DNA from: Tubiluchus corallicola
Taxonomy: Eukaryota > Animalia > Priapulida
DNA: 64,000 nt
Assembly (NCBI GenBank): GCA_030141605.1
Contig: JAQGDQ010000350.1
Span: forward strand, 42,098 to 106,097
Direction of reading: 5' to 3'
Shown: one piece after another, positions 597 to 58,998 of the stretch
Numbering within the stretch: position 1 is the first letter of the stretch
How the letters are laid out: the number at the start of each line of letters is the position of its first letter
Position numbers and translations under genes: made by a program
The notes under the pieces: generated by a model
The model's database searches: none
Seen by the model: only the letters and a program-made list of their open reading frames with translations
What the model was told of the DNA's origin: nothing

Positions 597-722
597 ATTC
601 GTCTTTCGCTTGTGCGGTCATTTGTCTCCATGGACGTGTTTAATGAAGATTCATTGAAGCAAATAGCTAGTTTACTGAACCGAGCTACTCAAGTGGAGAT
701 TGAAATGACTTCTCAGTCGTGG
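597..722 (+). CDS. PKD1L exon 1 in window (REJ-end/GAIN-A helices, IRLSLVRSF...[14 protein letters not shown])
   Basis: ttctag|ATT ... TGG|gtttgt; 126 nt open; family-like helical motif. Confidence 0.75.
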
Positions 723-3700
723 GTTTGTTTCTAATCTCTCTTTCACTAGTGGAAAGATCATTTATAGTGTGGCAGACAGTAGCTGCCAGATTTTGTAATG
801 TTTTCACCGATTTTGCTATAGGCTATGCTTTTATCAATTGACTCAAGGTAGCATTCTGAAATGTCCAATGTAACGTATTATCAGTTGACTCAAGGTAGCA
901 TTCTGAAATGTCCAATGTAACGTATTATCAGTTGACTCAAGGTATCATTCTGAAATGTCCAATGTAACGTATTATCAGTTGACTCAAGGTAGCATTCTGA
1001 AATGTCCAATGTAACGTATTATCAGTTGACTCAAGGTAGCATTCTGAAATGTCCAATGTAACGTATTATCAGTTGACTCAAGGTAGCATTCTGAAATGTC
1101 CAATGTAACGTATTATCAATTGACTCAAGGTAGCATTCTGAAATGTCCAATGTAACGTATTATCAGTTGACTCAAGGTAGCATTCTGAAATGTCCAATGT
1201 AACGTATTATCAATTGACTCAAGATAGCAGTCTGAAATGTCCAGCATATTGTGAAAATAATAGATGGAAAGAATTTGAATTTAAAGCATTATGTCAAACG
1301 CTGAGTAGCAACTAAATGCTCACCTGTTGGCCACATTGCAAGCTTCACTCTACTGTTTGTATTAGTGCGACTCAAAAAAGAATAGTGCTTAGCTTTGTTA
1401 ATGAACTAGTGAAATTGCTTGTAACCTATCTAATAATTGCACAAACCATTTGGTACCCTGAAGAGCATGCTGGTGTTAAACTTTCATGGCCTACTGTTAT
1501 AGTGCTGAATGATGTAGCAACAGTAATGGTTATGGTAGATGATGAAATAGCAAATATTTGAAGCTAATGTGGCAAAGAATACCTTTCAGAAGAAGCTTGC
1601 AGGCAGCTGCCCATCCAATTATAATCCAGATCCAGACTTGTTTTTCTATAATGTACATCTGTTAGAGTAATTTTGTCTGTACTTTCCACTAAAATAGGAA
1701 GTTAATTTTTCGCGTTGAAACTTAATGCCAAAGCAGGGCCGTCTTAATGCATCGGCACATTGGGAAGTTGCCCACGGACTCCAGTCTAATCCATGTGTTG
1801 TTGAGGCTTGTTATCAATAAATAAATACTAAACTATGAATATATGCTATTCTGTTGCAAGTGGACATTGGCTCTGATTTAGTCACCAGGTCACCTCTGAA
1901 ACCTTCTGTGCAGAATCTCATGCTTTACATAATGTACATGCTCTACATAAGTCAATTTTTTACAAAGACACAATCTTCAGATAAATAATAAATAATCAAA
2001 AGTAATTTCGTGCTTTACCATCTCCATTTTGTATAGTTTATCAATTGTGTAGCATTTATATGTTGAATCTTTTAAGTTTTCAAAGCACATCTTATGTTGT
2101 TCAAACACTTGTGTTGATTCATCTTCGCTGTACAGCATGTTTTTTAGCACATCTTATGTTGTTCAAACACTTGTGTTGATTCATCTTCGCTGTACAGCAC
2201 GTTTTTTAATATTTAAACACTTATTTTGTTGGAAGTACCAATACAATAAATATAAGTTTAATTTTCTCGTCTATCCCCTCTTAATAAGACCCCATTTGAA
2301 ACTACTACATTTAATAATCATATTTACTGAATAATTGTATTGTTTTGTTTAGATTTAGGTATCTAACTTTATTATTTTTTGTTTTCAGTTCTTTTTGGAT
2401 AATTTGTATCATTTATACTGTTTTTGTTGTTATTTTTTTCTTATTTGTTTTTGTTTTTGTTATCTGCACCATCCCAGTTAATTTTTAATGTGACTAATCT
2501 AATCTCTCTGACTAATAAGAAAGGACAGGAGACTAGATAACCCTATGGTCCTTCCCTGCCCTGCTCCATGATTATAATTACTTAATATTTAAAAAACTTT
2601 TGATGTTAAACTAATTGGAGAAAATAAATGTTCTATGTCTATGTCTATTTACGTTTTTATTCCTGTGAGTCGTTGTGTAGGTAGGGGTGCCAGTGCATTG
2701 CTTTGCTCGGGGGCCTATAATGCTGTTAAGAAGGCATTGATGACTGTAGAAATTTATTGCTGTATCTATTTGCTTTGTCGTGCCATTGTGATAAGGTTAT
2801 TGATTTCTCTGTTTTTTTCTGAAGTATTTCCAGCTTCTTATTTTGCACAAACTATCGCCACTAGGACATTAACTTAGTAAATGCTTGTACCAAATGGTAC
2901 CTCATGAACGTCACCTAGTTGAAAAAGCTTCCTGATTCAGTGAAGCATTTTGCTGTTAAAAAAGGCAACGAAAAAGCTGATGCAGAAGCAGTAACTTTTG
3001 GGCAGTCATTCTGTAAACACTCTGTCTTTCATGCACTCTGTCTCTGGTGAAACAGGCTTTAAACTGCTTCAAAGTTTGGCTAATTGGAAAAGGTTATTTA
3101 CAAGGTGTTGTGGTAGGAAAAGTCAAAACAGAAAAGCGATTTATCTTAAAATAAACAGAATTGAACTCTAAACCTGCAGCTCAGTGTATTTCTACCAGTG
3201 CAATGTACTACGAAACGACCGTGGAAGAGAATCTTCACAAAAGACCACAATAACATCGTACTAGTGTTTAGCTTTAACCATGCTGTTTGTCCTTTCTTGT
3301 ATCTCGTTTATTTTGTTTTAGTAAAAAAATTCAAGTTCTAACATGACGGTGGTGTAGCGTTGTACATTATTTATGTTTATTTACAGGTAACTGCAATGGG
3401 GAAGGTTGCAAGTTTTGGAAAGTTCATGAAACAAACTTACAACACTGTTAACATAGACGCTGATGCAAACAAAGTGAAAAACATTTCACAGTAAGTTGTT
3501 GAAATCTCTTATACACGATAACAGCTGCCAGGAAAAAAAGTCCTGAGTTCGAATCCGGGTGAAAATTATTTTTGGTCATTTCCTAATTTGTTTATGATGC
3601 AAACTATGAATCTAGGGTATTTGCGACTTGAAGCCTTGATAAATGGCAGAAATTCTGAAAATTTATAAAATTATATATTACAAGAAGCTCGCCAAACTTA

Positions 3701-6700
3701 GGTCTTTTAAGATGTTATGAATTTATCTTAAAATCATGATGTCTTTGTTTTATTTGGAAATTACTAATGCCTGAGTTATCATATTAGGACAGTTTCAGGA
3801 TAATTTTTAAAGCTTTATTTGCTATGAATCTTTTCTTGTGCTTTGACTTTATATCTGAAAACTGTTTATATCTTGAAATCATGGCACTCGGTTACAGGGA
3901 AGTGATGGGCTGTGTGTCGAATGTGTTGGCTGGAGCGCTTGCACAGTCAAAAGAGGAGAACAATGCTAGTAAGACGGAAGATATGGGAAGGGAAGACAAT
4001 AGAACTCTAGCAGAGAAGCATAAACAGGTTGATTTTTTTTGCAAAGAAATGTCATCATCATTATCATCATGTCTTTGTCATCATTGCTATGGCTTGATTA
4101 CTAATGAATAGTTTACATAATAATTAATAATTGTCGGAAACTCATTTCTGAAGTAAGCAGATTAATATTTGCTGTATTAATTTATTAATTTCGTATTAAG
4201 TATTGCAGGACTGACGCGGCAAGGCACTTCATCACTAACACTGGCCCTAGACTTTGGAATAACGTCAACGAATACATAAAAAATTCTTTATCTATAATAA
4301 CTTCAAAATAAATTTCAAAAGTGAAATCTTTTCTAATTATACAGAATAAATCAATTTGATTAATTACACTGCTGTCCCTGTCGGAATCCATTGCCTTGCT
4401 GGCTATGTCAATTTTTAAATTTCTATAGGTCATGTTACTCATACAGATACTACCACATCTTTCTCCTTTTTATTCTCTATTAACCTTTCCTTCTACTCCT
4501 TTACTGCTCTTTTCTATTACACTCAGTCCACATTCATTTGGGGTACTCTAAACAAGTAATTACTTCTTGAGTACCCCACGGGTCATTTGCGGCTTGGCAT
4601 CTTGAACACATAATAATAAATATATTATTAAATACTTTTATGTACAATGCTGTAATGATCATTGTGGATATATTTAATAAATAAATAAATAAATAAAATA
4701 ACTGTACGAAGTACACAAAGAAGGAGTACATAATTACTTTTGTAGTTTTACTGAACAAATATGTATGTATGAAACCTATCTTATCGTATCATTATCCATG
4801 TAGCTGTTTAAAGGCAAAGCTATCTCTAAACTTAATAAAGATGCTGTAGGTATTGGGGTAGAAATTACCGTGGTAAAATTATGAATTGTAATATATTGTG
4901 ACACTAACACATTTTCACTTACAATTGTGTATTATGAAGTGATAAAGTAAATAAGTACATCATCATGTTTTAACTCGTTTGTTTATTGTTATTATTTACA
5001 AATACATACAAATGACACGGCAGTGGACATCAAACACTAATAATACTTTTTGAGAACTAACTTTTGATAGAAAAATTCAGTCTAGCACATTAAACGAAAA
5101 TTGAAAACAATTTTTATTCTTGTTCTCGACATTAGCCATTATTAATTTATTTATTGTTATCGTAATCATCATCATCATCATCGATTGTCGTTGGAAATGA
5201 TAAAAGAATCTTTATTTATTATTCGTGTTATTGTATTTGGGTAATCACATTTCTGAAGTTTCTGCTGCTGCTGCTGATGATGTTGATGATGATGATGTTG
5301 CCGCCGCTGTTTAAGAATTATTGCACCACAGAACATACTTGCATCATTCATGGTTGACGATGTTATTGATTTTTTCAGATGAAAGTGATAACTGAATCTT
5401 GCGTGAAAGTGATTAAAGATGTGACCGATTCGATTATAACTTATAAACATGCTAGTGAGGAAGCAGAGCTCCTACAGACCGAATTTGTCACCATTTACGC
5501 TGATCGCATAGAAGCAAGCAAACTAGCCGGTGAGCTTGTTCAACAGTTTATTTCAGTCCATTTTATTTACCATCATTAGTATATTTACACGGTCAGTAAG
5601 AAATAACGCCATTATGTAGCTGAGAAGATGCAGCAAATGATCTGTCGATCGCCAGAAAATGAGATGAGTGGTGCGTATTGGAAAACATCTGTTTTCAACA
5701 ATCCATAGACATTAATGAAAAAACACTGAATGTTTTATTCTTCATAGACGATTTGACAAAAATGTTTATTACAGTGTACGCTCACTTATCTCAGGTATTG
5801 CGTACCAGGCCCACCCGTGATATGTGAATTCCCACGAAGTAGGGACACTGCTTGTTTTAGTAGTCTTACATTATTTGAAGTCTTTATAAATCCTCCCCAC
5901 ACTCTTATACATAACCCTTTCCCATTCCCTTAATAACTTTTTCCGTTCTGTACATGTATCTTTTAAAAAACTTTACTTAAATATTCATATAAAAATGTTT
6001 TAAACTCATAAACCGAGATACGTAATTTTAAAAATTTTATATGGGCACTCACCATTGAGTAGCATCTCAAGTGGGTGCAAGTACTACATTTCATTTTTGG
6101 TGTGTATTCATCCGCCGAATAAATTTACTATTTACTGTAAATGGTAATTTTTTATGATTTATAATATTCTTTTAATGTTAGAATTAATGTTTTTAATATA
6201 TTTTTATACATTTTGCGATTTTTTATGCAAAATTCATCAAATCTGTACAATACGTACGTGCTGCGCATGTGCAAAAATACTTTAGACTTAGTACCGCAAA
6301 AACTAGCGAAACAGCAAAAATACCGCAATAAATATTTACATTAATACTTTTGAAAACCTGCGAAACATCGAATCCGCGATAAACGAACCTCTAAGTAGTG
6401 AGGGAACACCGTATACATACAAAATTACAAAGTTCACAAAAATTAAGCAAAAGACAGAAAAACGAGCACACTTTATCATCTCTTTCCGTGCCGATTCCTA
6501 CTGACCAATAAAAAACTTTCATGATTTCACATGCCTCCCATTCGCCGCAGTGTGACAACATTCGAAATAACTAGTAATGATTCAAATTGTTATTTTTAGG
6601 GGATAAGTTAATTAACTTACGTAGATATGCACGGTTATGTACCTTAGACTAATTGAAATAATGTTGACATAAATGATTATGATAATATGATTTTATATAC

Positions 6701-9700
6701 AACATTTTTGTATCATTATTATGCATCCAGTATTAAATTTTAATTGCTTGATGTAATTGCAATTGTTCTGTGTTTAGGTAAAACATTAAAGATTAAAGAC
6801 ATGGGAGAATTCAAGATGCCGTACAATTTCAGTGACAAATACGAGGATAATGACGTATTTGATGTGGAGGTAGAACAGCCTGTATTCGCTGAGCTGTCGT
6901 CACGTTGTGCTTTTTCCTGCATGTTCCGTTCATTTTACTGCTGACACTTAAACTTAGCAAAATATAGAAAGGAAGTGTGAAAATATTTCCTATAAAACAT
7001 AAACTTGTTTAATACTACCGCATTATAGAAATTTCACGCGCAGCTGTAGTCGCCATTCACTTCAAATTGTGATGTAATTTGTGGACTTCGTGACTTTCCG
7101 TAAGCGTGCGCTGCCTAAATTCAAACTTCTGCGGCTTTCCTAATGTTCCTGTAAAAATATCAAAAAATTAGCTATCTATTTTTTGTTAAACTTATTACAC
7201 TTTTGATGGAAATTGACAGTGCGCTGGTTTTCTATGGCCGACGACAGACATTATTGATGCAAAAATGCGTTTAAAATGGAGGCACTCAAGCATAAAATGA
7301 TTTTAGTAATTACACGAGGAGCTCATTGCACTTTCATTACTAAGCTTTCTAATATTTTTCGCAATAGTCGAAGTAAGCCTAACTTCCCCGAAGGCTTAGC
7401 CTCTCCTTTATATATACGTGTGCTTGCAAACCAAAATCACCCGTAAGTCGGCATAGTTAAAACTACGTTCTGATGCTTCAAAGTAGAATTTTGTCAAATG
7501 TCAATTCTTTGTTTTTTTATAAAAGCAAATGCTAAATAGTTGGAGTTTTTGGTTCCAGCATCAAAATTATCAAGAAAATGTTCAAAAAAATGCCAAAAAT
7601 CTTATTTTATAGTTTCGTACTCACTTCTCTAGGTAGAAACTAGTACTGCAATTGTAAAGAAATTGTATTTTAAAACTCTGATAGTAGTTCGTGGAAGCAG
7701 TCATTTTGCTTGGGTTTTTTTGCCAAGCCCAAGTCTTTGCCAGGAAGAACCATCTACTGGATTTAAACATAACATGGGCTCTTCAAAGTCCATAGCAATC
7801 AGGATTTGTGCAGTTGTTAAGTGTTTTGTAGAAACGTGACAAAAAACGGTGGCTAACTTTAACAGTGATTTTCTCAAGATTATGTTTTTCTGTACGTAGC
7901 CTGCACCTCAACTTCAACGTGGATTGTCTCAGCTTAGTATTAATAGAGAGCAATGAGCTTGATATCAAAATGATCCTCATGAAATGGAGTTTCAGGATAT
8001 GCGAATAACTAGAAAAGCTTAATTGCCTATTTAATAAAGTTTGATTCTTACCTGCATATTGTATGTTTTCTTATTACAGCTGTATCAAATCAAGCAGAAT
8101 CCTTACATCTGGTCTGATTCATCGACTATTGTCAACACACCCGTAGCAAGTATTGCTATTAGGAGATCTAATGCTGATGGTACAACCGAGTCTACAATCT
8201 CACTACCTTTAGAGTACTTTCTAGAATTACCAGGTAATCACCTTTCATTTACTGCAATAAATGCATTGAAGTGTAAAATCTCTGAAATTTTATGTAAGTT
8301 TATATAGCGAAAAGTAGCCGAGTGTTCACTGTCAAGTTGTGTAAGTTAAACAACACTCACCCTGGTTAGTAAATACATGCTTGGCTGCTTCAGAGCGGTT
8401 TCGCCTGCCGTAAGTTTTTCAGATTTTTGTTACCGTGTGTTTGTCCAAACTCGACTAAGATGCCTCTATGGGATTAGTGCCTTGCATTAGACAATTCATG
8501 TTGATCTAGATCCTAGTCCTTCCACAACCATCTACTTTATGCGCATTTTATCATTAAGTGTTTGTTTGTGTCTTGAATTGCATAAAAATGAAGAGCATGA
8601 AGGTTAAAATTTAAACAGCGGTGCTGACATCTAGCAATCTTTTTACCAATCGATTGTCTGACAACTGACTTATTAACACAGCATTCATGGAAGTAAAATA
8701 ATGGAATTTTTTGCACTCACACACATGCACACACGCACGCACACATACACAGGCGCACACACACACACACACACACACGCACACAAACACACAATTAACA
8801 ATGCTTTTATTTACTGGTTTGTCTAGACTTGATGTATGTCATTAAAACATTTAAAATTATCTCAACTAACAATGCTTTTATTTACTGGTTTGTCTAGACT
8901 TGCCGTATGTCATTAAAACATTTAAAATTATCACAACTAACAATGCTTTTATTTACTGGTTTGTCTAGACTTGCCGTATGTCATTAAAACATTTAAAATT
9001 ATCACAACTAACAATGCTTTTATTTACTGGTTTGTCTAGACTTGCCGTATGTCATTAAAACATTTAAAATTATCACAACAACAATGCTTTTATTTACTGG
9101 TTTGTCTAGACTTGTCGTATGTCATTAAAACATTTAAAATTATCACAACTAACAATGCTTTTATTTACTGGTTTGTCTAGACTTGCCGTATGTCATTAAA
9201 ACATTTAAAATTGTCAAACTAACAATGCTTTTATTTACTGGTTTGTCTAGACTTGTCGTATGTCATTAAAACTTTTAAAATTATCACAACTAACAATGTT
9301 TTTTTTGTTGACTTGTCTAGACATGACATGGTTTCAATCACATTACACGACCAGCACAAGGGCACTAGAAAGCAAACACATCACTGTGCATTCCATCACC
9401 AACAACCCGGAGATGCACCTAGTACTTGCTTTCAGACATTTGTCCAGCTCGGCCATATTGAAGGTAACTTGCTACTAAAGCAGCTATTATTATCCAAACA
9501 AAATTTTAATATAGCTGATTTGTTTCTGCATGGAGAAATTACTCCTACTGATTTTACGTCAATGACTTGAATGTGTTTAGCATAATTTATGTATCAATTA
9601 CTTTATTGGTCTGCTTATACATTACCTATTTGGCTTTTGTTAATTACTTAATTAGTGCACAAAAGGCTCTGCCTATATTAACTGGTTGTATGTTTTTAAA

Positions 9701-12700
9701 ATTTACCACGGCCGATGATGGCAGTAGTCTGTGCAACTGTTTGGCAAGTTTTTAACTATGTAAAGTAAAAGTTTTAATGAAGTTGAGTTGTTTTAACTAT
9801 AAATGTTTTTAAGTGCCTGTATTAAGCAAAGCACATTGTTTACTTTTCTTAAGTTGCGAACTGATTGTGGGGAATTGAAGGAACCAATGTGCTGTAAGAT
9901 AATGTCCCAAAAATTTGTACTTTTGTTAACCATTTCTATTTTACAGGTTTTATTCAAGCAGGATGACCGGCCAGTAATTGATGACTATGATGGGCGTCGA
10001 CCGCTGTATCGTATTCCAGTTCCTCGCGAGGATGAATACATAGCAATTCAACCAAATTACATTCTCAGCATTTACAATCCTCTGCCTGAGAACGTCACTT
10101 ACCAAATTGGCATTCTGTTTGATTCTGATGAGATACCTCCGTGTTACGAGCCATCAGTGGCGTGCAGACGACATGCGAATGAATGCAGTGTTACCTCGGA
10201 TACGTGCTCTTCATCTGAGAACCTGATGGAATGCTGGGATCAGGCGTGTCGAGAGCCTGATGAATGCGACGTTACCGCAGATACGTGCTCGAAGAATGTC
10301 AAGGAGTGCATTGAGGAGAAATGTAGTGTAGATTTTTGCCTAGAGAGGGAGCTTTGCTACGACGACTGGGTGGAGCACTGTAGAAACATTTCCAGAAGTT
10401 GTGGAAAAGCACTGGCTGGGTGTCGGTTCTACTCAACAGAGTGGTGTCGGCGTTACCATGACGCTTGTTTGATCGAGTGCACCTTAGATGAAGACGAGTA
10501 TCAGGGACATTGTGAAGTACTTTGTACATGGCAGCGTGAAAAGTGCATTGAAAAATTTGAGTGCGAAGCCGTCGCACCGTGCATCCACCGCACAGATGTT
10601 GACTGTACGTTGACGCTGCACGAGGATTCCAAGCGACAGGCGTGTAGGGACATTTACAACAATTGTACGATGGAGCACACGGATGCTTGTATGTTGGACA
10701 TGTCTCAGTGTAACGCTACCTGTTACAGTTGCCTGCCGCTTTGTGACTCTGCGCTGGCGGACGATTGTACGGCAGTGTGTCAGCAAAGGCTAAGAGTATG
10801 TTTACAACCCATGAACGAAACGTGTGTGAACGTGACCCACGAGACACTGGTGCTGTGTATGACTTACTGGTGGATGGAGAATCCCGCACTGATAGCCGCA
10901 CGGTTTAACAATGAATCTGAGCCAGAGTTACAAGGTGAGTCAGTGAGAATTGTCAACATGTCATCTGACTTCTGCCTACTTGTTTAGACTAAATTACTGA
11001 AACTGCAGCTTATAAGCATTTTTGTCTACAACAAACAGAAACGCCGTGTAGCGACCAAGCCAACTTTGAATACATTTTGTTAAAACTGTAACGTTTTGGC
11101 TATAATCTGTAGCCCATTGTCACTCAAAACAGGCAAAAATTAGGATTATGTTCCAACTTCTCTGGATTAAAGCACAAGGTAGTCTTTTACTTATGTAAAG
11201 CTTAAAATTTTGTACCACTTACATGCTGTCTTATTGCATGTAAGGCTTGCCTTATCAGTAACGCTGTATAATACTTGAAAATTTAAAATCACGTGATGAC
11301 CGTTAGACCAACCATTTTGATAATAAGTCATTTGAAACAAGTTTATTTAACACTGAGTACAGTTTTCAAAAGAGCTTTCATTTCGTAGACTTCACTAAGC
11401 AAAATTTTAAATTTACTGTATCTTGTCAATAAAATTTAAAAATATGTTTTTTTGATGAGTGAGCGGCACACTGGAAAGGTAAGTCAACGACATTTTACAA
11501 AGTTAGTGTGATGTTTCTACTTTAATCAACATTTTTAACAAAAATAATCCCCAGATGCTTTTATGATAAAATTTTTAAGAAAAATCAGTTGCAGTCCTTC
11601 TCAAATAGCTGTTATAGTAGCCTGATTTGATTTAATTTTTTAACCAATTAACTTCTTCACGACTGTATCGTTCAAAATACGTCTTATAAGACCTATGACT
11701 TTTCCGTTACTGTATGTGCACAGATACAACTAATGATTACAAATTAGGTACTGTTCTATTCAGGAGGATCTCAGCTATTCAATCATGCCTTTTCTTTAAA
11801 TAAGTGGTTTAATTAGATAAAATTAAGAGAAACGTACCCTTTTCATGCTCTGTAACTTAGCCTATTGAGCAGTAGCTTAGTCTGGCGTACACTTGCATGA
11901 TCGTACCCACTACTCTATTGATCCCCTGCTTGTTGCAACCCGAGAAAATCATCTGCTGTACAGAGTTCCAGGATCAGCCAAGGATAAATTAAGATCGTTT
12001 CATCTTTTAACAGGAATTTATGATTTAAAAATTTATGAGTAGACCTGAGGCCAAAGCGTATCAGAGTGTTGTGTCTGGATAGTTGAAATTTTCTGCATTA
12101 GCTGATTTCACACAAGTGATACTGTATGTTGTTACAGTGCAAACACTGTAGTTACTGAAAACTTCCAATTTTTTGTAAAAAATCAACTTTTAATTTGGCT
12201 AAGGTAAGCAAATGCATTTCATATATAATTTTGAATGAAAATGTAAAATGTCGGTTTCTACTTCATTGTGTGGGGAGTAGAAACGTATAAAAATTATCAA
12301 ATCATTGCATAGTGAGAGCATTTGTTCATGAACCCATGCAAGATGCAGCAAACAATTTCAGTCCTGATGGAGTTCTGAACCATTTTGTTTCCTCATTGTA
12401 GCTTCATTGTGAAACCCTTATAGAGTGAAAAACTTCTTAGATAACAGTACAAAATCCTTCAAAAATAGCTCGTTTATTCAAAAAATACACCTTGGCAGTG
12501 CTTCGTACATTTCACTCGGATTTTCTAAAACAAATTTTACTGTAAATATCCCCAATTATGTTGCACAAGTGCATTGTTATTTCATATAGATATGTGTAAA
12601 TACTTGCACAATTCGTTTGTTTTGCAGCCACCATTGCTCCATACAAGATTGCCACTTACACTGCTGATGTGAAATTTGCCGGTACGAGCGCTTCCGTGTA

Positions 12701-15700
12701 CGTGATGCTCCACGGTGAAAGAGGTGACTCTCCCATTTTCAGACTCTTCGAGAAGATCCAGAACTTTGCACAGGGAAGGTAAAATTAGCTTTGTACGTCG
12801 TAGTGCAAGCACTTGTAAAAATGAATTCATGAAAGCCAAAATTGTCTGCAAAGTTTCTCACTTGGTTTCTTAGGCACAATAATTGAATAAAATGCCATTA
12901 AAATTTTGAACTGCAATTGCTTTAACAAATAGTTAATTTCTATAACCTTTTAACCCTTTCAGTCCCAAATTATTTTTTTAATAAGAAAAAAATGGCTTGG
13001 TACTTTTGTTCAGTATGTCCATCTTGTTTACACATAATAATTATTTTTTCTACCTGTGCCCATGTGCTAAATATAGCCTGTATCCCACGGGATACATTGG
13101 GATTCAATGGAAGCATAAAATGCGCTTCATTTTGGAACTGCTGATAATTTTTTAAAGTATTTAAGAGATTTAGTATGCATGCTATGCTGATCTGTACAAA
13201 GTCGTCTCTAAAGTACTGTACCTTGCACAGTTTTTTATGCTATGTAGATTTTCTAGTTTGCCATTTTATCACAATTTTTAGTCTATTGTTATTGGCTTAA
13301 ATCAAAATAACTATTAACAGATCAAATGACTGTCAGTTTTAAAATTTTATTAATTTTAAAGGCAGAAAATATTCTCGTATCCCACGGGATACAACGGGTA
13401 TGAAAGGGTTAAGCTATGCTTTTTTAATATTCTAAACAGAAGTTATATGCAAAAATTCAGAAACATAACATTAGGGATGGTAAAAATTTGGCGATATGAC
13501 ACCATAGTTTTTCTAACAAAACAATGACTATAATATATTTGTAGATAATACTCAAGCAATAAAAACAATACTGAAGTTAGACAATTTAAGCAACAGCAAA
13601 AAAGTATAATTAATAAATAAAATTGTTTAGCACTTCCATGCATACTTACATGGCTGCTAGTTATGAAACACAAGTTTGTTTCTCATAATGATGTAAAACT
13701 AAGTAAGCTAATGACAGACAAACATATTACTAATATTTATCTTTGTGAGCTGCACATCTTCAGAAAAGTGTCACTAAGAATACAGTACAGGGTGTTTGAG
13801 ATCCCTGCATCAGTACCAACGTGTGTAAAGGATCTATATACTTTGTCAGTGTGATTCAGAATGAAGATTGCCCTTATTGCCAGGCGAAAATGTTTCGGCA
13901 TCTAACAAGCTGCTACTTTTAAATGATTATTTTTATCCATGTTTTGAGGAATTATTGTAAATAAATACAAAGTAAAAGTAAACAAAGTATAGTTTCATTT
14001 TACCTAACATTGTTGCTTAGTTACTGCAAAAGTCTGTGATGAATTAACAGCTTAAATGATCACAGATTATGAGCCTGAGACATCTGTGATTCTACGTTAC
14101 AGTCATTGTAATATTGTTAAATGCAAATGTCATCGAAAGAATTTGTTTATTTTCAGAGTGGACTGGTTTGACTTTAGTATCTTATCCGTGGGTCTCATAC
14201 ACAGTATTACCGTGTTCCACGACAATGGAGGGTTTAGTCCAAGTTGGTTATTAGAGAAGGTGACTGCTATTTACTCACAGTCTACTTGCAAATGAGAATT
14301 CCGGTTGAAAAGTAGTTTTATAAACTGCATTAAAGTTAGTGTTCAAAAACACCTCCTAAATAGAACAAGATCAATGGTATTTGGCTGGTGAAATTTCTAC
14401 AATTCTACAATTAGAATGTATTTTACATCATTAGGTTTATTTCCCAAGCTGAAATCTTACTTGATGGCCCTCCAAATTCTCTAAATATCCTTGCAAATAA
14501 GTTGGTGTCATTTGGACCCCATGATCAGAGATGGGTGAATATCACTTTCTCGTTTATCTGCAACGCAAAATCTCAATTTTACATATCCACATCCGAAAAA
14601 TTGTAGGCAACAAATTAACTAGCTTTGCTCTACCTGCCCTATTGTTAAAAACTGTTTTTTTGTATGAAGCTAGGAGTTACAATCACAAATCACTAGCCAG
14701 ACCCCAATTTTGCTTGTAAACTTTTAACAACAACTCACACAGCACGATGTACATAGTACGTCACTCAACCATATCATGCCCATCATCAACACACAACAAA
14801 CCATGATAGGCTGGAGTAAAAATGATAATATTTGTAATTATGAGCAATGATTTGCATCTGGGAACTTACAGAAGCAACAGGTGATGAAAACATCTTCAAA
14901 TAAACTAGTGATGAAAGACATTTAGTGTGGCAACAAGCCTTTTAATGCACAAGGGAATGTTTAATGAACTGAAATTGTGTAAACTGTTTGTGCAAACAAT
15001 TGAAAATTTATTGTACAAAAGTGGATTTTTGACGCTATAATTTTGAGTAAAATCCGCGATTTTGCGCCATAAAAATCCACAGAGCGCATATCCGTACATA
15101 ATTCACTATCCACAATCCACTTATCCATAGAATTATTGCGGATTCTGCAACCACATGACTGTAAATTCACTATCCGCCCATCTCCTCTCATAATATGTTG
15201 CATAAGTTCTGTACACTGCAGGCTTATATCCCGTGGTCTTTTTATTTTGCTCCTGGGTGTAGCAGGACAGGTGACGTATTTACCATCAATGACAATCCTC
15301 TCAGATGATATACTGCACCAACAGAAGTGCCTTAGCCCGGTTCAGATCCATTACATTTTCTTTCAGTAAAGTAATAGCTTGTGTGGTGAAGCAAATAAAG
15401 TTGTTCGAAAGGAATTCTTTTGACAATTCATTTGCGAACCATGCCCAGACTTGCTGAGCTTTGGTAGCTAAGCTGAGTATTTCAGAGTTTCCATGAAAAA
15501 AATATTCAGTTATTTGCTGGCTGATAAATTTCTTTAGTTCCACTTTAGTTTCAGTGTTGATTAGTCCAGTTTCTGGTGTACCACTGCTCTTGGTGTACCA
15601 GCATTCTTGGTGTAACACTGCTCTTGGTGTACCAGCATTCTTGCTGTAACACTGCTCTTGGTGTACCAGCATTCTTGGTGTAACACTGCTCTTGGTGTAC

Positions 15701-18700
15701 CAGCATTCTTGGTGTATCACTGCTCTTGGTGTAACACTGCTCTTGGTGTACCACTGCTCTTGGTGTACCAGCATTCTTGGTGTATCACTGCTCTTGGTGT
15801 ACCACTGCTCTTGGGGTAACACTGCTCTTGGTGTACCAGCATTCTTTGGTGTATCACTGCTCTTGGTGTACCACTGCTCTTGGTGTAACACTGCTCTTGG
15901 TGTACCAGCATTCTTGGTGTAACACTGCTCTTGGTGTACCAGCATTCTTGGTGTATCACTGCTCTTGGTGTACCACTGCTCTTGGTGTAACACTGCTCTT
16001 GGTGTACCATTGCTCTTGGTGTACTACTGCACTTGGTGTACCACTTCGCTTGGTGTACCATTGCCCTTGGTGTACCATTTCTCATGGTTCACCACTGCTT
16101 TTAATGTACCACTTCTCTTGGTGTGCCTGTGCTCTTTGTGTCCCAGCTGTCTTTTTAGTGGATTCGTTTATATTTCCTCTTCTGCATCTCCATACCTGTT
16201 GACAAAGTTCAATGAAGGAGTACTAATTTCCCTTTAATATGCAAATTTCTATTTTGTGGAAACATCAGTGCTTTATCTACATCAGATAATTGTCTTGCTT
16301 AAACGTCTTGTTTTTGTGTGCCGTAGATACTTATAGTTGATGGTTATCTTGAAATGATCTGCGCATGTGGACAGTGGTTGGAAGGAGTACCTCCGCTAAA
16401 TGTGAAGACGTTCCCGTGTGTGCTCCATCAGAATAATACTCCACCTGGTAAGCTATGATAATCGTTTTTGTTTTAACCAATATAGTGCACATCAGCGTTT
16501 GTGTGTGTGTGTGTGTGTGTGTGCATGTGTGTGTGTGTGTGTGCATGTGTCCATGCGTGTGTGCATGTGTGTGTGTGTGTGTGCATGAGCGTGCATTTGC
16601 GTGTGCGTGTGCTTGCATGTGCGTGCATGTGTGTGCATGTGCGTGTGTGTGTGTGTGTGCATGCGTGCGTGTGTGCGTGCGTGTGCGAATGAGTGTCTGT
16701 GTGGGTGTGGGTGTGGGTGTGGTGTGTGTGCGTGCATGTGTGTATATGTATGTTACCTCCAGGGTGGGAGGCGAGCACACTACCATTGAGCTGCTTCACC
16801 CTGTGTAGTGGTGCTTCAGTTGTTAATGTTACCATCAGGCTGCTAATGAAAGACCTCAGGCTGCAAATATTCACTATGTCTAGAAAACTAATGTTATTAT
16901 GTTCACGCTATTTGCAGCTTTTTCATTGCAATACATTGTTAGTGCTTTGGCTCGGGTCTTATGTGATAAAGCTTTTTTTTCATTAAAGTGAATGTTAGTG
17001 TGACATCGGTAAAGGAAAACACGATGATTTATCATATCAAATCCCATTTTGAAGTAAAGGAAAACGTATACATCTCAACATCATTAATACTGCAAAACTA
17101 TTAATGGTAATTAAATAATAGATTGTTTTGACCTACAGTTCAAGGTTGCATCAAGGTCTCCGTTAAGTTGGAATTAACAACACAGTATGTAGTTTTATTC
17201 TGGTTGCAAAAGTAAAAATTTACTGTAACTATACTTAGCAGTACATAAGATTATGTACCCCAGTACTGTAACTATACTTAGCAGTACATAAGATTATGTA
17301 CCCCAGTACTGTAACTATACTTAGCAGTACATAAGATTATGTACCCCAGTACTGTAACAATACTTAGCAATACATAAGATTATGTACCCCAGTACTGTAA
17401 CTATACTTAGCAGTATATAAGATTATGTACCACAGTACTGTAACTATACTTAGCAGTACATAAGATTATGTACCCCAGTACTGTAACTATACTTAGCAGT
17501 ACATAAGATTATGTACCCCAGTACTGTAACAATACTTAGCAGTACATAAGATTATGTACCCCAGTACTGTAACTATACTTAGCAGTATATAAGATTATGT
17601 ACCACAGTACTGTAACAATACTTAGCAGTACATAAGATTATGTACCCCAGTACTGTAACTATACTTAGCAGTACATAAGATTATGTACCCCAGTACTGTA
17701 TCTATACGTAGCAGTACATAAGATTATGTACCACAGTACTGTAACTATACTTAGCAGTACATAAGATTATGTACCCCAGTACTGTAACTATACTTAGCAG
17801 TACATAAGATTATGTACCCCAGTACTGTATCTATACGTAGCAGTACATAAGATTATGTACCACAGTACTGTAACTATACTTAGCAGTATATAAGATTATG
17901 TACCACAGTACTGTAACTATACTTAGCAGTACATAAGATTATGTACCCCAGTACTGTAACTATACTTAGCAGTATATAAGATTATGTACCCCAGTACTGT
18001 AACAATACTTAGCAGTACATAAGATTATGTACCCCAGTACTGTAACAATACTTAGCAGTACATAAGATTATGTACCACAGTACTGTAACTATACTTAGCA
18101 GTACATAAGATTATGTAGCCCAGTACTGTAACAATACTTAGCAGTACATAAGATTATGTACCCCAGTACTGTAACAATACTTAGCAGTACATAAGATTAT
18201 GTACCCCAGTACTGTAACAATACTTAGCAGTACATAAGATTATGTACCCCAGTACTGTAACTATACTTAGCAGTACATAAGATTATGTACCCCAGTACTG
18301 TATCTATACTTAGCAGTACATAAGATTATGTACCCCAGTACTGTAACTATACTTAGCAGTACATAAGATTATGTACCCCAGTACTGTACCTATACGTAGC
18401 AGTACATAAGATTATGTACCACAGTACTGTAACTATACTTAGCAGTACATAAGATTATGTACCCCAGTACTGTAACTATACTTAGCAGTATATAAGATTA
18501 TGTACCCCAGTACTGTATCTATACGTAGCAGTACATAAGATTATGTACCACAGTACTGTAACTATACTTAGCAGTATATAAGATTATGTACCACAGTACT
18601 GTAACTATACTTAGCAGTACATAAGATTATGTACCCCAGTACTGTAACTATACTTAGCAGTATATAAGATTATGTACCCCAGTACTGTAACAATACTTAG

Positions 18701-21700
18701 CAGTACATAAGATTATGTACCCCAGTACTGTAACAATACTTAGCAGTACATAAGATTATGTACCACAGTACTGTAACTATACTTAGCAGTACATAAGATT
18801 ATGTACCCCAGTACTGTAACTATACTTAGCAGTACATAAGATTATGTAGCCCAGTACTGTAACAATACTTAGCAGTACATAAGATTATGTACCCCAGTAC
18901 TGTAACAATACTTAGCAGTACATAAGATTATGTACCCCAGTACTGTAACTATACTTAGCAGTACATAAGATTATGTACCCCAGTACTGTAACAATACTTA
19001 GCAGTACATAAGATTATGTACCACAGTACTGTAACAATACTTAGCAGTATATAAGATTATGTACCCCAGTACTGTAACTATACTTAGCAGTACATAAGAT
19101 TATGTACCCCAGTACTGTAACTATACTTAGCAGTACATAAGATTATGTACCCCAGTACTGTAACTATACTTAGCAGTACATAAGATTATGTACCCCAGTA
19201 CTGTAACAATACTTAGCAGTACATAAGATTATGTACCACATTACTGTAACAATACTTAGCAGTATATAAGATTATGTACCCCAGTACTGTAACTATACTT
19301 AGCAGTACATAAGATTATGTACCCCAGTACTGTAACTATACTTAGCAGTACATAAGATTATGTACCACAGTACTGTAACAATACTTAGCAGTACATAAGA
19401 TTATGTACCACAGAAGAGTTGTTTAAACCTACTGTATTCCTGCTACATGTTTCTTTTGTGAACAGTAAATCATTTCAAACTTTTTTATTTCTCCCATGAC
19501 ACTTCATTCAGCATAAATGATCTAGGCTTGTCCTGAACCATGAACTTTGATAACCAGTATCTTATAGTTGTGCAAAACAGCTGTAAAATTCATTAATTAT
19601 CTCTTAATTAGCACTTAATTATCTCTCCATTTCATTTGTCTTAAAGCCTTGAACGCTTCTTGTTATGAAAAATGTTAATCTTTCTTGTTAATCTTTCAAT
19701 GACGTTTAACTTAACGTAGTTTCGGATATTTTTATGCTTATTTGCTTGTAGCGCCGGCTGTCATCAACGAAGTGAACTTTACTCTTGGTTTCTTCATGAC
19801 AAAGTGTCTTTACTGGAATGAGACGACAGAAGAATGGGTAGATAAAGGCTGTAGGGTAAAAATTCTTCAGTTGTTTTTCTCTTTCGTAACTTATTCACTT
19901 CCTCTCATTTTAGTTTTAAGCTTTGGCATCAGTTAAACACAGACATAGACATTCTTATTTATCTCCTCATTCACACCAGAATACAAATATACTATAATTG
20001 TTATAATTATTAATTAATTAGGATGAATTATGCATAATGGGAAGTGTTACCGGGTGCAGAGGAAATGTTAGCCAAAGGAAAGCTTGTCATCAAGTCAGCT
20101 AGTCTTACACAGCTTTATACAGAAAAAGTTTATAAATGGTGTGAAATAAATGCACGTCAAAATTTCATTGTTCTAGTTGTACATATTTTTTATTGAAGCA
20201 TTTTTTTTGAGTATTACATACTACTGGATTCGAACCACAGACTAATTCATTCATAATCCATCACATTTAATTGAAGTTTATCATACTTTTTTAATAGAAG
20301 AAAGTGAAAATTTTGTATTTTGGTGAAAATTTGATGGTAGAACGTCTTCAGAAAAATAATTCTAGTAATTTTTAGCACTTAAATGGTTCAAAAATGTAGA
20401 GATTTCATTCCTAATGCCATTTCATGATGTTCAACTTTTACTGAAAGTGAATAAGAGTCATAGGTTTAAATGCTACAGTGTATAGAGAAGGATGGCTAAA
20501 CTCATACAGAAAGTGAAGCAATCATTGCTGCCATGGTTCATAATGTGTCATAATGTAAATTCCATGGTTTGCTGTAAGGCAAGCAATGGCTACCATGTTC
20601 TAATACAAAACTGCATTTACTTGATAGGCAGAAACAGTCATTGACTGACAAACTTTTGAAGGTTTGAAGTAGTCATTGATATGAAGTCTAGCAATTTCTC
20701 TCTGTGCAGTTGCGGTGTGACAATCTATGAATAGGTTTTACTTGTGGTGCCATCTATTGCTTGAACATCCAACTAAACTTTTTGCTCGCCTCTCTGTATT
20801 TGCAGGTTGGACCGCTCACAACGGAAAAGAGGTTACATTGCAAGTGTGACCACATGAGTACATTTGGTGGGAGCATCCTCGTAGCTCCGAACAAAATCAT
20901 GCCCTTCAAAGAGGCCGTTCTTTTCCTGCAATTTTTCGACAATCCAATCACCATCATCATCGTGGTTTTTGTTTGGATCATCTATTTGTTTGTCATTCTG
21001 TATGTGAGATCAAAAGATAAAGCGGATTTTTTACAGGTTTGTAAAATAATTTCTAGCTAAAAGGAATGGACAAAAAACAGTTCAAAGGTGTGTGCATGTC
21101 TGACAAAATATTAACCCTTTTGCCACGTTGTTCCCTTTTAACTGGACCATATTGACTTTTGCACATTTGACAATAACTTCGTGTTTTGTGTTACTAAAAC
21201 AATACTAAAATCTTGTAAATAAACAAATAAATGTTATTAAGTACTAATATTACATATTAATTTTATTTCTACACATCCACACACATGTGAACACACATGC
21301 ACTCACGCACACAGACGCACGCACACACACACACACACGCATTTTATAAGTATGCAGAACGATCAACTAAATGTGCATTTTATCAATGATGTACAAGTGA
21401 TTTTGCGTGAGAACATAACATACAGTACAGTATTGTGGAATGCACCTGGTTTAAGGCTAAGCCTGTCCCTTGCATGAAAAACATAGGCGGCAGTGAGCCA
21501 CCTTCCGTAGTGGAAGGGTTAATAAAAAAATGTCACTGTTTCCAGTTTGCTGCATTAAGTACAATCTAGTGTGAACATTATGCTTGCCTTTCTTGCCCAG
21601 ATTCATCATTCAGTGGCAGAGTACATTTGATCTACATAGTTGTGAATCTGTGAATAATAGTCCTGTACGCTAAGACTTTACCTGCCAAGGTAGCTTGGAT

Positions 21701-24700
21701 ACATTCAAATGTACGCTAAGACTTTACCTGCCAAGGTAGTTTGGATACATTCAAATGTACGCTAAGGCTTTACCTGCCAAGGTAGCTTGGATACATTCAA
21801 ATGTACGCTAAGGCTTTACCTGCCAAGGTAGTTTGGATACATTCAAATGTGCGCTAAGACTTTACCTGCCAAGGTAGTTTGGATACATTCAAATGTATGC
21901 TAAGACTTTACCTGCCAAGGTAGTTTGGATACATCCAAATGTACACTAAGGCTTTACCTGCCAAGGTAGTTTGAATACATTCAATTGTGCACTAAGACTT
22001 TACCTGCCAAGGTAGTTTGGATACATTCAAATGTATGCTAAGACTTTACCTGCCAAGGTAGTTTGGATACATCCAAATGTACGCTAAGGCTTTACCTGCC
22101 AAGGTAGTTTGGATACATTCAAATGTACGCTAAGACTTTACCTGCCAAGGTAGTTTGGATACATTCAAATGTACGCTAAGACTTTACCTGCCAAGGTAGT
22201 TTGGATACATTCAAATGTGCGCTAAGACTTTACCTGCCAAGGTAGCTTGGATACATTCAAATGTACGCTTTGGATACATTCAAATGTACGCTCAGACTTT
22301 ACCTGCCAAGGTAGTTTGGATACATTCAAATGTACATTAAGACTTTACCTGCCAAGGTAGCTTGGATACATTCAAATGTAGAATAAATTTTTTTCTACAT
22401 TCACTTACTTACATGATGCAGTCATATAAAAGCACTATTTTCATTTAAAACGTAAAACACAATAATTATTATAACATCGTTGTTTTGGAGACGCACGATG
22501 CGGCCATGTTTTTCCACTCCTAACTCTCGGCCAGGGTTGCCATTTTGTATGCTGCTAATTGTATTGGAGGCTAAAAAGTATGGAATTTTCTGCCAAATCG
22601 GTGCATTAATGGATGGGTAGTGTTGCCGCTTTTACCATAATCATCAGAACATACTTGCATTCATATTGCAAAAAGAGACTATACAATAATCGTTAATTAT
22701 ATGATAATTTAGCAATGTGCAACTAAAAAACAAAGAGTGAACAAATGTACAAACGTTATTGCTAACCAGTGGAAATAAATAAACTTTGATTTCAACTGAT
22801 TTTAAATATCCCACAATTCAGTTTTAAACGGTCACAAAGCTTTAAAAAAAATTTTCCTCCCATCGTACTGACATCTTTTAAGCCCATTGGGGAGACAGAA
22901 ATATTTTTTTGTTGTTTGGCTTCAGCCTTGTGGCCTGTAGTTTTTAATTTTGCTGCTACTGCATTTGAAAAAAGTCCAAGTGGAAAAAACTCAAGTTGTT
23001 GTAGCTGTTGCTGTTACTGTTGCTGTTTTGTTGCTTTTACTGTTGTTGTTACGGTGATTAACATGTTTGTCAATCACAAGGTGGTAATGAATAGATAGTA
23101 ATTGTGCTTTGTTGTTGTTGTTTTTGTTTACAGGTTGGTGTTACGTTTCTAGAAGACAACAACCCAAATGACCAGCATGCTTATCTTATCATTACTTACA
23201 CGGGTATCAGGCAAGGTGCTGGAACTACGTCCAATGTGTTTATTATCCTGAATGGTGAGTTTGTGTAAGTCATCTAAATAGGCTATGCAATAGTTTAGCA
23301 ACACTTGGCACGGTTTGTAAATAAATAGGAGACCAAAGTAAATTTCTAAGTGTTTTTATCTCCATACTGCCTCTGTGCATTGCTTGCATCGATGGAAGAC
23401 GTGTACATGGGTACTGAACTGCTGTTAGTCCAGTGATTCCCCTTAGATGATTATTCTTAACATTGAGCTAGATTCCAGTCTAGCCGCTGTCTCAGCTATG
23501 ATTAGTAAGTAGGCACTGTTGTTGAATGCTGGTATCAGCTTGCATAGGCCAAACATTTTGTAATAAGTACCGTGGCGACCATTTCTAGCCGTATCTAGTT
23601 TACGTTTGTGGAAGGTTAATGTTTTAGCAAATTTAAAAAAAATATATTTAATTCAATAGATTTTAAACTGTCCCATTCTTCAGACTGACAAAACGTCATA
23701 GCTTGGGAATCGAACCAATGACTTTCTACGACTCTGTTATTCATATATGCTAGATAAGTTGTAATGTACTTATATAATCTGTTCAAATAACTACGTAAAC
23801 AGCTGTACCACCGTTTACTGAGGCTTCCATCTCCCACCTGTCTGGCAATCCACACTCTTGACCTAATTTGCCAAACAGCTAACTGGTATAACATTTGCCG
23901 GTTATCAGAACTACACACCACCAGTATTTAAAAGACTAAACTTTCTAAACATTTATGACATTAACAAGTTCCAAACTGCTATTTTCATGTACAGTTTCAC
24001 TCATACAAATTATTGCCACACTTATTTATTGATTATTTTTTGTTTGAATGCTGAAATGCATAATTATAATACATCATATAGTCTTAACTATGACCAGGGC
24101 CTATTTCAAGGGGGGAAGTGGGGATACGTCCCCGGGGCCTCACCCTCCAGGGGGGCCTCGCGCCGAGGTAACATTATTTTTTTTACTTTATGCGAACATA
24201 CTGTATAACTCCATATTTTCTCTTCGAAAATGCTTCTCCGGCGTTCTAGCAGTTCAAAAATTTGTTCAAAAAGCGTTTCAATCCCCGAGGAGGCCTGGCA
24301 CACCCCACTTCCCCGGGCCTCGCTTAGGCTGAAATAGGTCCTGACTATGACTACACAAATGTAAGAAAAATTTCTATTACATACAATGGCTCTTACTTAT
24401 TAAATTCATTTGCTCCAGCTATAAAAATGCCAACTCGCTGTTCATGTTCAAAAAAGTATGTAAAGTACACTTACTTGAAACATATAACTGATCACTCAAT
24501 CATAATTTGTTGTTGTTTTTCATTTTCAACAGCTTCCCCTCTAGTACAATAATATTAGTTCCCACCTGTATATATATATATATATATATATCTATAGTGC
24601 ACACCTCCATATAGTCTAATCAAGTGTTGCCTCCTCCACAAATGCTTAGCAAATGTGTTAAAGCATTTATCATTTTTCTGGACCGTACATCTGTTTACAT

Positions 24701-56568: not shown

Positions 56569-58998
56569 CTGAAAGACGAACATGAGTAATGATTAATTCA
56601 AAATAATTTGTCAGCAGTGTACTCAGTATTATTTTCGACATTCAGAACTGTTAACAATTATAGGAAACGTTTGAGCATCTCTATGGTTACAATGTTTTGG
56701 CAGTTTACAGACGGGACAGGACACCTGGACAACTGATAGATAGATGCGAGCAATGAATAGGTGTGCTGGGAGGTCAGCTATGAAGTTCTCGGGACAACGA
56801 ATAAACAGATTTTAAACCAAAGTTGTCTGATTAGTAATGCTCTGTTCAGGTGGGAAACCAACATAGACAATGACAGAAATGATTAAGTCGGTTTCCATAA
56901 CTGAAATGCCGAAACAAACCAAAATAACTGCTTTGTTAACTCACAACATTTTACTAAAGCTTTAAATCATAAAATGATTGACAATAGTTTAATCTGATGT
57001 TATCTGCAGCATTCCATCTTTCTTGAGAAAGAATACTAAACTAATTCTAAACTGTTTGTAATAGATTAGTAGAAATTTAGAAATTCTTCAAAATATTCTT
57101 TAGTGACTTTTTTACTAAAATGTAAGATGTATATATAGGTCTGGATCTACCAGAGCTACAACTACAAATCCATCATATAAATTCAGTTAACAAGTACAAA
57201 TCATTTTTTGGATTACTGGTAATACAGAGATAAGACTTCATGCTAGCATAAGGCTTAGTTATTATCCCACACTAAAAATAATTGCATTTCCCATGCCATA
57301 TTTAACACAGTCCAAAGTACAAGCTACAATTACTGACAAATAATTTATATTACATGTGAATGTGCAGATTTTTGTTGCTTTGCTATTGTTGCTCAATAAT
57401 CTATGATGGGCTTTCTCTATCCCGCCTTACAGGCTAAACATAAGTCTCTTAATAATAACACATAACAAAATAGATGTGAAACATATCTCTGTCCTAGAAC
57501 CTCTTGAGATGCTGCAGTTACAAACAAGACGGCTCACTAAAATAAAATAATTCATCCTGGAAAAAGCTTGTTTGTTCCTGCATGGTAAGACTAGCTTTGT
57601 AATGCCTAATAGCTAGCAACAAACTTGTACCAAATCAGACATTAATGGTAGAAATCAGAAGATCATTTTGCATCGAAGAGAAAAGTATACTACACCTAAT
57701 AGCTGTTTAAAAATTTTCTTATTTTTCTAGGAAATACACACATAGAGTTGGAAATTTATCTCATTTCAGTTGCACCAACAAGCTTACTGAAAACGTTAGT
57801 CACTTAATTTCCATTACAAAAGTGTCGAGCGGCAAAGAAAATGCTAAATTCCGTTTATATTTACTATTTGATATAATTATAGAGCCTAGATTCGTCACGA
57901 CGATCATTCTTCTTGACCTGACATTTACTTTTCTCTGTGAAGAATCTACTGCTACGAAGCTTCATTGTTGACAATTCTTTCAGTTTAATATGACCGGTGA
58001 CAAATATGGTAATTTTTGTATCAATGTGCTAGAGTGAATCTTCTTGTTTTACTACAATTCAAACCTGGACGTTTCTTTTGCGTATAGCGAAACATTAGTT
58101 TGTTGATGGTACTTGGATGCAAAACATTAGGTATATGACATCTAATTGCAATAGTAGAAAAACACCCGAAATGTTATGGATGTGAAGTAGTAAAATAATT
58201 TGGTGACAGTTTATTTATTCTTGTGGTTAAAGCTAGTTGCTGATTACTGTTGTTTATTGCGTGGCATGTGAGGTAGCCACGATGGGCATGGCAAACTATC
58301 AAGACTTTATTTAATGAGCAACACATTTATTAAATATCAAACACAACACGGTGAATGTAAGAAGATAGTAATGCCAGCCCTCTGTTTTTCAAGTCTACGC
58401 GGAGGTGCGGGCCTCAAAACACTTTCATCTAACTACCTAATGCCCCGTGAGCTTCTGCGTATAAGGATTACATCATCCATTTTTACTTCTGAGTCAGCCA
58501 GTCCATCAGCTGGTCACGTGATGCCACACCTCTAACTAGGCTTCTAGCCACGACGATAGTTTAATCTTGCATCGTCAAGCATTTAATTTTGAATTATTAA
58601 TTTAATATTTATTCGCCGATTTAATCAAAATCATAATTTAACACAGCTTTCCTATACCGTATGTAGTGGGTTTTTATGCGTGACGTGTGGAAAAAACTAG
58701 CTTTTGTTACATGCGCAAGATGGTTTAATAGCTAAAGATTCTAGGCCAAATATTCGTATTGTGATTAATATATGTTGCGCACATAACAAATCACAACGGC
58801 CACTTTAGTTTTTCTCTGAAAGCCTGCAAAAAACATTATTGGTGCTTATTTCAAAGCCACAATTTGTGCTATTTTTTCAGTTCCCTTAAATTTAAAAATA
58901 AAACTCGATATTCTTGTAAGATTATGCAATTAAGCTTTAAATGAAATACCAGCACTTAATTTGGTGCAGCAAAGCCCAAAACAACAATAAAAACTCAC

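Follow-up and report, generated by a model that had tools for sequence, protein, structure and literature searches.

Can a receptor related to the kidney-disease protein polycystin-1 carry a PLAT domain on the outside of the cell? The question is raised by a 64,000-nucleotide stretch of the genome of the priapulid Tubiluchus corallicola (assembly GCA_030141605.1, contig JAQGDQ010000350.1, positions 42,098 to 106,097 of the forward strand), here called the window, in which an intact polycystin-1-like gene holds three PLAT-coding exons (exons 9–11) upstream of those for its GPS and its first transmembrane helix (TM1). Our preferred reading, to which we give a probability of roughly 55%, is that these exons were likely captured from another PLAT gene and that splicing likely places them, behind an exon extension encoding 36 cysteines, within a hairpin at the surface of the GAIN domain. 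The cleaved N-terminal fragment would thereby gain an extracellular binding module. If true, this protein would break with the rule, as stated in the literature, of an always intracellular polycystin PLAT (PMC1934368).

The window consists of intron-rich animal DNA with a GC content of 36%, and the gene was modelled on its plus strand with 26 exons (597..51595), comprising 1,948 codons and no internal stop. As the 5′ end of the gene lies upstream of the window, the model contains the in-window exons only. Of its introns, 24 are of the GT-AG and one is of the GC-AG type; in the final intron (50185/50186), the frame is kept only with a GC donor, the rest of whose context matches the consensus. 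The GPS (residues 771–817 of the model) stands directly ahead of TM1 (residues 837–855), the first of 11 Kyte–Doolittle peaks above 1.7, which we take as 11 predicted helices (hydropathy scan only). Between TM1 and TM2 lies the PLAT domain usual for the family (residues 883–990; 122 bits with a profile from fetched relatives), and the last exon matches the Pfam families PKD_channel (PF08016, E=1e-38) and Polycystin_dom (PF20519, E=1e-19). The cleavage triad in the GPS is H-M|S (HMS), which fits H-x|T/S; among 168 scored GPS motifs, 158 read HLT, three HLS and two HMT. Over the GPS-TM1-PLAT segment, the best matches are mostly molluscan PKD1L2-like proteins with 39–44% identity. The features of the gene are as follows:

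Exons 1–7 (those in the window), 597..9463, plus strand: helical GAIN-A region, GAIN-B strands and first half of an extra β-sandwich (open frame; GAIN profile columns 53–306 at E=3e-26; residue map).
Exon 8, 5′ part, 9947..10123, plus strand: strands of the extra β-sandwich up to the strand preceding the insertion (GAIN profile and residue map).
Exon 8, 3′ part, 10124..10934, plus strand: insert of about 270 residues with 36 cysteines.
Exon 9, 12628..12778, plus strand: beginning of the inserted PLAT (N-terminal portion), phase 1 to 2.
Exon 10, 14157..14259, plus strand: middle of the inserted PLAT, phase 2 to 0.
Exon 11, 16327..16447, plus strand: remainder of the inserted PLAT (C-terminal portion) together with a linker, phase 0 to 1.
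Exon 12, 19752..19855, plus strand: long strand closing the extra sandwich and leading into the first half of the GPS (Pfam GPS, E=0.0025).
Exon 13, 20806..21036, plus strand: second half of the GPS with the triad H-M|S, stalk and TM1.
Exons 14–16, 23134–23254, 25117–25276 and 27408–27546 (span 23134..27546), plus strand: usual cytoplasmic PLAT after TM1, phases 0|1|2|0.
Exons 17–26, 28499..51595, plus strand: TM2–TM11, TOP/polycystin domain, PKD channel domain and stop codon.

A first-pass annotation, made from the letters of the window, had proposed exons 9–11 and their in-frame splicing, and at the DNA level its coordinates proved exact: AG/GT signals stand at all ends, the phases run 1|2|0|1 over a total of 375 nucleotides, and the join 9947..21036 is free of stops both with this cassette (566 residues) and without it (441 residues). 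When the remaining splice sites of the gene are scored by leave-one-out, all six cassette sites fall within their range; relative to intronic AG/GT, they reach the 90th to 99.9th percentile, the weakest being the acceptor of exon 11 (2.5 bits, 90th percentile). The GC content of the cassette exons is 0.43–0.50 versus 0.36 in the introns. Conceivably, these exons are pseudo-exons or remnants of a separate PLAT gene nested on the same strand, with no part in any polycystin transcript, an idea that fits with their inclusion being read from genomic DNA and with their occurrence in none of the relatives listed below. However, both outer phases fit the host intron (1 in 9 by chance), translation extended beyond either end of the cassette, downstream of exon 11 or upstream of exon 9, runs into stops within about ten codons, and two versions of the locus both have an open frame. 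Moreover, the introns hold no further PLAT-like frame: in a six-frame scan of the window with PLAT profiles (E<0.5), the frames of exons 9, 10 and 14–16 scored and no others did, exon 11 alone included among the latter. We therefore consider this explanation highly improbable.

The same splice pattern bears on whether the cassette is always used. Since exons 9–11 each change phase, partial skipping breaks the frame; skipping of the entire cassette, with phase 1 at both ends, leaves it open. The gene might thus give rise to two receptors, with and without the outside PLAT, of which the short form may dominate, and the weak acceptor of exon 11 could be taken as a hint in this direction. Symmetric phases are, however, equally required by exon capture, and the other five sites are as strong as those typical of the gene. 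Regulated skipping, which would be compatible with our preferred reading as far as the long form is concerned, is in our view unlikely.

Joined together, exons 9–11 encode a recognizable PLAT domain. With a profile built from 61 PLAT domains of fetched relatives, from which the window sequences were left out, residues 635–733 of the model match columns 1–103 at 56 bits, and over all profiles from relatives the scores range from 56 to 75 bits across about 103 columns. The expectation of two PLAT domains flanking the GPS, the usual one after TM1 among them, was thereby borne out; the first-pass description of the inserted domain as complete is better worded as near-complete. Exon 9, scanned singly, matched Pfam PF01477 with E=6e-4 and 20.9 bits versus a cut-off of 23 bits; exons 10 and 11, each scanned alone, gave no Pfam hit. 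An Atlas search with exon 9 returned 30 hits that all carry PF01477 (best score 0.94), this recognition lying under the threshold of the tool. Compared alone with longer proteins, exon 9 yielded two candidates and no hit, and against PDB sequences its sole match was 11R-lipoxygenase (E=0.42).

On which side of the membrane would this domain lie? The hydropathy scan of the model found no hydrophobic helix ahead of residue 837. With no helix between the inserted PLAT and the GPS, and given the topology of the family (PMC1934368), the domain would therefore, provided that the cassette is included, be extracellular and belong to the N-terminal fragment. Under this proviso, a predicted second PLAT domain upstream of the GPS and TM1, within the GAIN region and extracellular, is supported. 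PLAT domains in secreted lipases and alpha-toxin work outside cells, and an extracellular PLAT as such is thus less surprising. We also considered a C-terminal cysteine pair, as a possible disulfide, to be a sign of an extracellular PLAT, and rejected it as a marker because 131 of the 197 scored PLATs, nearly all of them cytoplasmic, have two cysteines in that stretch.

The inserted domain had further been labelled as being of the lipid/Ca2+-binding type. Lipoxygenase PLATs bind membranes in a calcium-mediated manner (PMC9682198). In the inserted PLAT, positions 11, 52, 72 and 83 of a profile of LOXHD1 repeats are acidic; three further positions that are acidic in these repeats (18, 47 and 57) are occupied by S, A and S, and so far the label has not found support. 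A protein or glycan partner would be at least as likely as a calcium-bridged lipid.

The site of the insertion was derived from a GAIN profile of 376 columns, covering 330 residues before the GPS and the GPS itself and built from 50 relatives. It matches the window protein in two collinear pieces, columns 53–306 (E=3e-26) and columns 319–376 (E=8e-27), with about 400 residues between them. This insert begins with the cysteine-rich region encoded by the 3′ part of exon 8, and the PLAT, with short linkers, forms its last quarter. The 36 cysteines are mostly spaced 6–7 residues apart; the region is helical by prediction, at low confidence (predicted local distance difference test, pLDDT, of 41) and in a model too poor for a fold search, and it gave neither a Pfam family nor an Atlas hit at ≥0.9. 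An upstream match could be measured in 57 relatives; in 53 of them, 13–71 residues (median 23) separate the preceding strand from the GPS, compared to about 410 in the window protein. Among the relatives, no other point of the region varies as much in length as this hairpin.

For a structural view, the GAIN region of one relative, P0041, was folded with a 48-sequence alignment (pLDDT 86; predicted template modelling score 0.82). The model resembles the GAIN domains of adhesion G protein-coupled receptors (Z 15.5, root-mean-square deviation 3.2, 167 residues aligned; best Foldseek hit 4dlo), and its residues 155–274 form a separate sandwich similar to collagenase PPC/collagen-binding domains (a middling Z of 8.7, root-mean-square deviation 2.8, 90 residues aligned). 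This sandwich agrees with the 'additional beta-sandwich between extended S9 and S10' reported for about 2,700–2,900 PKD models, which is described from predicted models only and without a function in a paper whose main text contains neither the word 'PLAT' nor the word 'insertion' (PMC11697300). By alignment onto the P0041 model, residues of the window protein cover every strand of the extra sandwich. The insert falls into the loop that connects strands 248–257 and 264–280, the latter of which runs on into the GPS.

The predicted site is hence the last hairpin of the polycystin-specific extra β-sandwich and not the GAIN-B core, and the layout would be a nested one: the extra sandwich lies within GAIN-B and itself accommodates, in its last hairpin, the cysteine-rich region together with the PLAT. 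The earlier notion of a PLAT inserted within the GAIN domain, around which the fold would be visible in a structure prediction, is thus retained in outline, as the GAIN profile is split in two and the relative's model places the site in a hairpin loop; it has to be corrected as to the exact position and the size of the insert, and the window protein itself is fitted to that model by alignment. Because the insert would sit in a surface hairpin loop, the GAIN fold could close around it, and cleavage of the GPS at H-M|S would be kept.

With regard to the origin of the inserted PLAT, its gene structure is informative. It has introns after its first and second thirds and phase-1 ends, while the gene's own PLAT has introns at other positions and phase-0 ends; the two have no intron position and no end phase in common. 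The inserted domain scores 75 bits with a profile of LOXHD1 repeats versus 63 with polycystin PLATs, the respective values for the cytoplasmic PLAT being 77 and 135. Its best pairwise match is LOXHD1 (P0168, 36% over 105 residues), and it possesses two LOXHD1-type acidic residues that are rare in polycystin PLATs. A tree was computed from 71 domains: the two window PLATs, 54 polycystin PLATs selected from the fetched set with most vertebrate near-copies omitted, and the 15 repeats of a single LOXHD1; PLATs of lipases, lipoxygenases and further classes were left aside. In this tree, the inserted domain stands on a long branch apart from the clade of polycystin PLATs (95/97). These features suggest capture of the exons from another PLAT gene, as a phase 1-1 module, as the likelier origin.

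The outside PLAT might also be a duplicate of the gene's own cytoplasmic PLAT that diverged later. This domain is indeed its second-best pairwise match (41% identity over 87 residues), and an approximately unbiased (AU) test does not reject a grouping of the two window PLATs (p=0.34). Yet given the different intron positions and the end phases of 0-0 versus 1-1, a direct copy of these exons at the DNA level would not fit a phase-1 intron, and the higher score to LOXHD1 repeats and the LOXHD1-type residues likewise speak against such a descent, which we regard as doubtful.

A second version of the locus offers a view of the selective forces acting on the insert. It was found in run X1, which covers introns and contains no splice joints and therefore represents DNA; run X2 contributed two short intronic pieces only. 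In the second version, the frames of exons 9 and 10 are open. Among the differences listed (40 of 85 rows), one in exon 9 is synonymous, while in exon 10 two codons differ synonymously and three others change the amino acid, in one case to the consensus W, such that 3 of 34 residues differ. The 3′ part of exon 8 has at least 6 synonymous and at least 10 changing codons, a short block lying outside the count, and both listed differences in cysteine codons (2/2) are at third positions. For the cassette by itself, the ratio of nonsynonymous to synonymous differences (pN/pS) amounts to 0.35 (p=0.17); when the 3′ part of exon 8 is added, it is 0.40 (p=0.03, with no correction for transition bias). 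This pattern lends weak support to a coding constraint on the insert; positive selection was considered as well and, with a pN/pS of about 0.4, is not supported.

The second version may be an allele, a paralogue or a sequence from a close species. Within run X1, a single contig with a depth of 19 represents positions 10591–10952, in the 3′ part of the cysteine-rich exon, and differs at 30 of about 360 bases; the 5′ part shows 10 differences in 854 bases at a depth of 60. The contrast in depth and divergence may point to several copies or to strongly divergent alleles.

The same data are relevant for a further explanation, in which the PLAT is included in the protein but binds no ligand itself: as a passenger or spacer under weak selection, it would simply be tolerated by a permissive loop. 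The variable length of the hairpin in relatives, the loss of acidic residues, the long branch of the inserted domain in the tree (2.3) and the changes in exon 10 speak for this view; the core strand pattern and the signature motifs are nevertheless kept over 103 profile columns, and pN/pS is below 1, if on small counts. A mere passenger appears decidedly unlikely to us.

According to our preferred reading, the three PLAT exons are likely spliced in behind the 36-cysteine extension of exon 8. The cysteine-rich region and the PLAT would together equip the N-terminal fragment, once cleaved, with an arm for binding ligands or surfaces, which might bind a partner protein, the matrix or an opposing membrane. 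Because the insert ends just ahead of the long strand entering the GPS, such binding, or tension, would load the subdomain that holds the stalk and might tune the activation of the channel complex; polycystin-1 is described as responsive to a tethered agonist (PMC13197933). A bolder and rather speculative proposal would see the extra GAIN sandwich as a display platform for a polymorphic, disulfide-rich recognition domain and a captured PLAT that grips an opposing cell surface, both of them coupled to the strand leading into the GPS. Cell contact would then pull on the stalk-holding subdomain and gate the channel, with in-frame skipping of the PLAT as an on/off switch.

How unusual is this architecture? 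Three protein searches provided 286 proteins, 176 of which contain both a GPS and a PLAT (17, 42 and 117 by search). The sample, which includes the best 150 of 3,524 and the best 120 of 977 hits, is biased: vertebrate PKD1L2/L3 account for almost all of the 17 and of the 117, and its diverse part consists of the 42. In none of these 176 proteins does a PLAT lie between the sandwich and the GPS. Proteins from sea urchin, abalone, coral, planarian and Ciona are described with one PLAT each in the running texts, figures and supplements aside, of the respective papers (PMC1934368, PMC12980990, PMC4890752, PMC11448475, PMC7018956), and passages of three others contribute nothing on a PLAT-in-GAIN layout (PMC12716839, PMC8051682, PMC8740744). 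More generally, we found no account of this layout in literature mostly outside subscription papers and supplements, and the first impression of an unfamiliar architecture has therefore held. As read from the DNA, it is real and so far undescribed, in an otherwise ordinary family and in one gene of one genome.

Several points weigh against our reading and explain our restraint. The inclusion of exons 9–11 in the transcript is a prediction from genomic DNA, and the 375-nucleotide cassette can be skipped with the frame kept. As the insert is found in none of the 176 listed relatives, conservation across species cannot argue for its function, and within the cassette the excess of synonymous change is not significant. 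The similarity to the gene's own PLAT, the AU result, the long tree branch and the three non-acidic positions, all given above, belong here as well. Finally, a shorter sub-profile of 123 columns, used for the distances, missed the upstream half of the window's GAIN region at E<0.01, and the placement of the insert thus relies on the full 376-column profile; the structural support, in turn, comes from a model of P0041 and not of the window's spliced protein.

If our reading is true, the accommodation of about 400 residues, including an entire folded domain, in one hairpin of the sandwich would imply that the fold, and probably GPS cleavage, tolerates large inserts at this point. The hairpin would accordingly be a candidate site for tags or force handles in proteins of the PKD1 family, with which the control of the stalk by the ectodomain could be probed.

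Other parts of the window deserve brief mention. A tandem array of units of about 89 bp (by eye) at 29390–32990 contains dozens of copies of the acceptor and initial codons of exon 19 (32967) and thus places many decoy acceptors ahead of the true exon. The end of exon 23 and its donor recur at 45850–46790 in tandem copies of about 93 bp (by eye), and one additional copy of the acceptor and start of exon 22 is found at 40786–40853. Intron 15 contains, at about 25470–26100, a frame without a matching Pfam family, which we take to resemble the 3′ end of an RTE-type retrotransposon reverse transcriptase. On the minus strand, open frames of 277, 98, 127, 206, 101 and 221 residues at 58937–63012 show stretches like leucine-rich repeats and recurring cysteine caps (by eye); they probably represent one multi-module leucine-rich repeat gene, convergent on the polycystin gene, a label likewise given by eye, and the one such frame that was scanned had no Pfam hit.

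Among known systems, the molluscan polycystin-1-like protein 2 sequences are closest: P0033 from Haliotis rubra (XP_046574496.1), P0128 from Ylistrum balloti (XP_060069517.1), P0121 and P0068 from Gigantopelta aegis, and P0040 from Mytilus californianus. They are the best matches over GPS-TM1-PLAT (up to 43–44%), form the nearest branch for the cytoplasmic PLAT and share the order GAIN-GPS-TM1-PLAT-channel. They differ in having about 21–24 residues from the hairpin strand to the GPS (four measured; P0040 starts too late), one PLAT and no cysteine-rich insert. The human proteins PKD1, PKD1L1-3 and PKDREJ and the sea-urchin SpREJ proteins are alike in the GPS before TM1, the PLAT after TM1 and the 11 helices (PMC1934368) as well as in the extra β-sandwich within GAIN (PMC11697300); in contrast to their solely intracellular PLAT, the window protein has a second copy ahead of the GPS.

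Two PLAT hits per PKD1-like protein, as in the window protein, are also seen in P0141, P0170 and P0172, which we considered as instances of the same layout and rejected: each PLAT follows its own GPS, as in tandem repeats or fused gene models and unlike an insertion into GAIN. In P0170, from Lingula anatina, a GAIN-GPS-PLAT unit occurs twice (residues 2191–2583 and 2922–3314) with identical PLAT sequences, probably by duplication in assembly or annotation.

A further related system is s-Themis-B, a PKD1-like channel receptor for sperm self-recognition in Ciona, which has REJ, GPS and LH2 domains and a polymorphic extracellular region (PMC7018956). It contains one LH2, and its hypervariable region is named before the REJ domain (PMC7018956), whereas the variable part of the window protein is inside GAIN; compared to the multi-allelic hypervariable ectodomain of s-Themis, the window locus is represented by one other version only, with a pN/pS of about 0.4. 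Receptors of the s-Themis type are further marked by expression in sperm and by a partner gene for a fibrinogen-like protein, nested in their first intron; the first intron of the present gene lies outside the window. For the inserted domain itself, the PLAT repeats of LOXHD1 are the best match by profile and pairwise comparison, as judged from the one LOXHD1 gene sampled. LOXHD1 strings together as many as 15 PLATs and was detected by a method for submembranous epitopes (PMC11387651), whereas in the window protein a single copy would be fused into an ectodomain.

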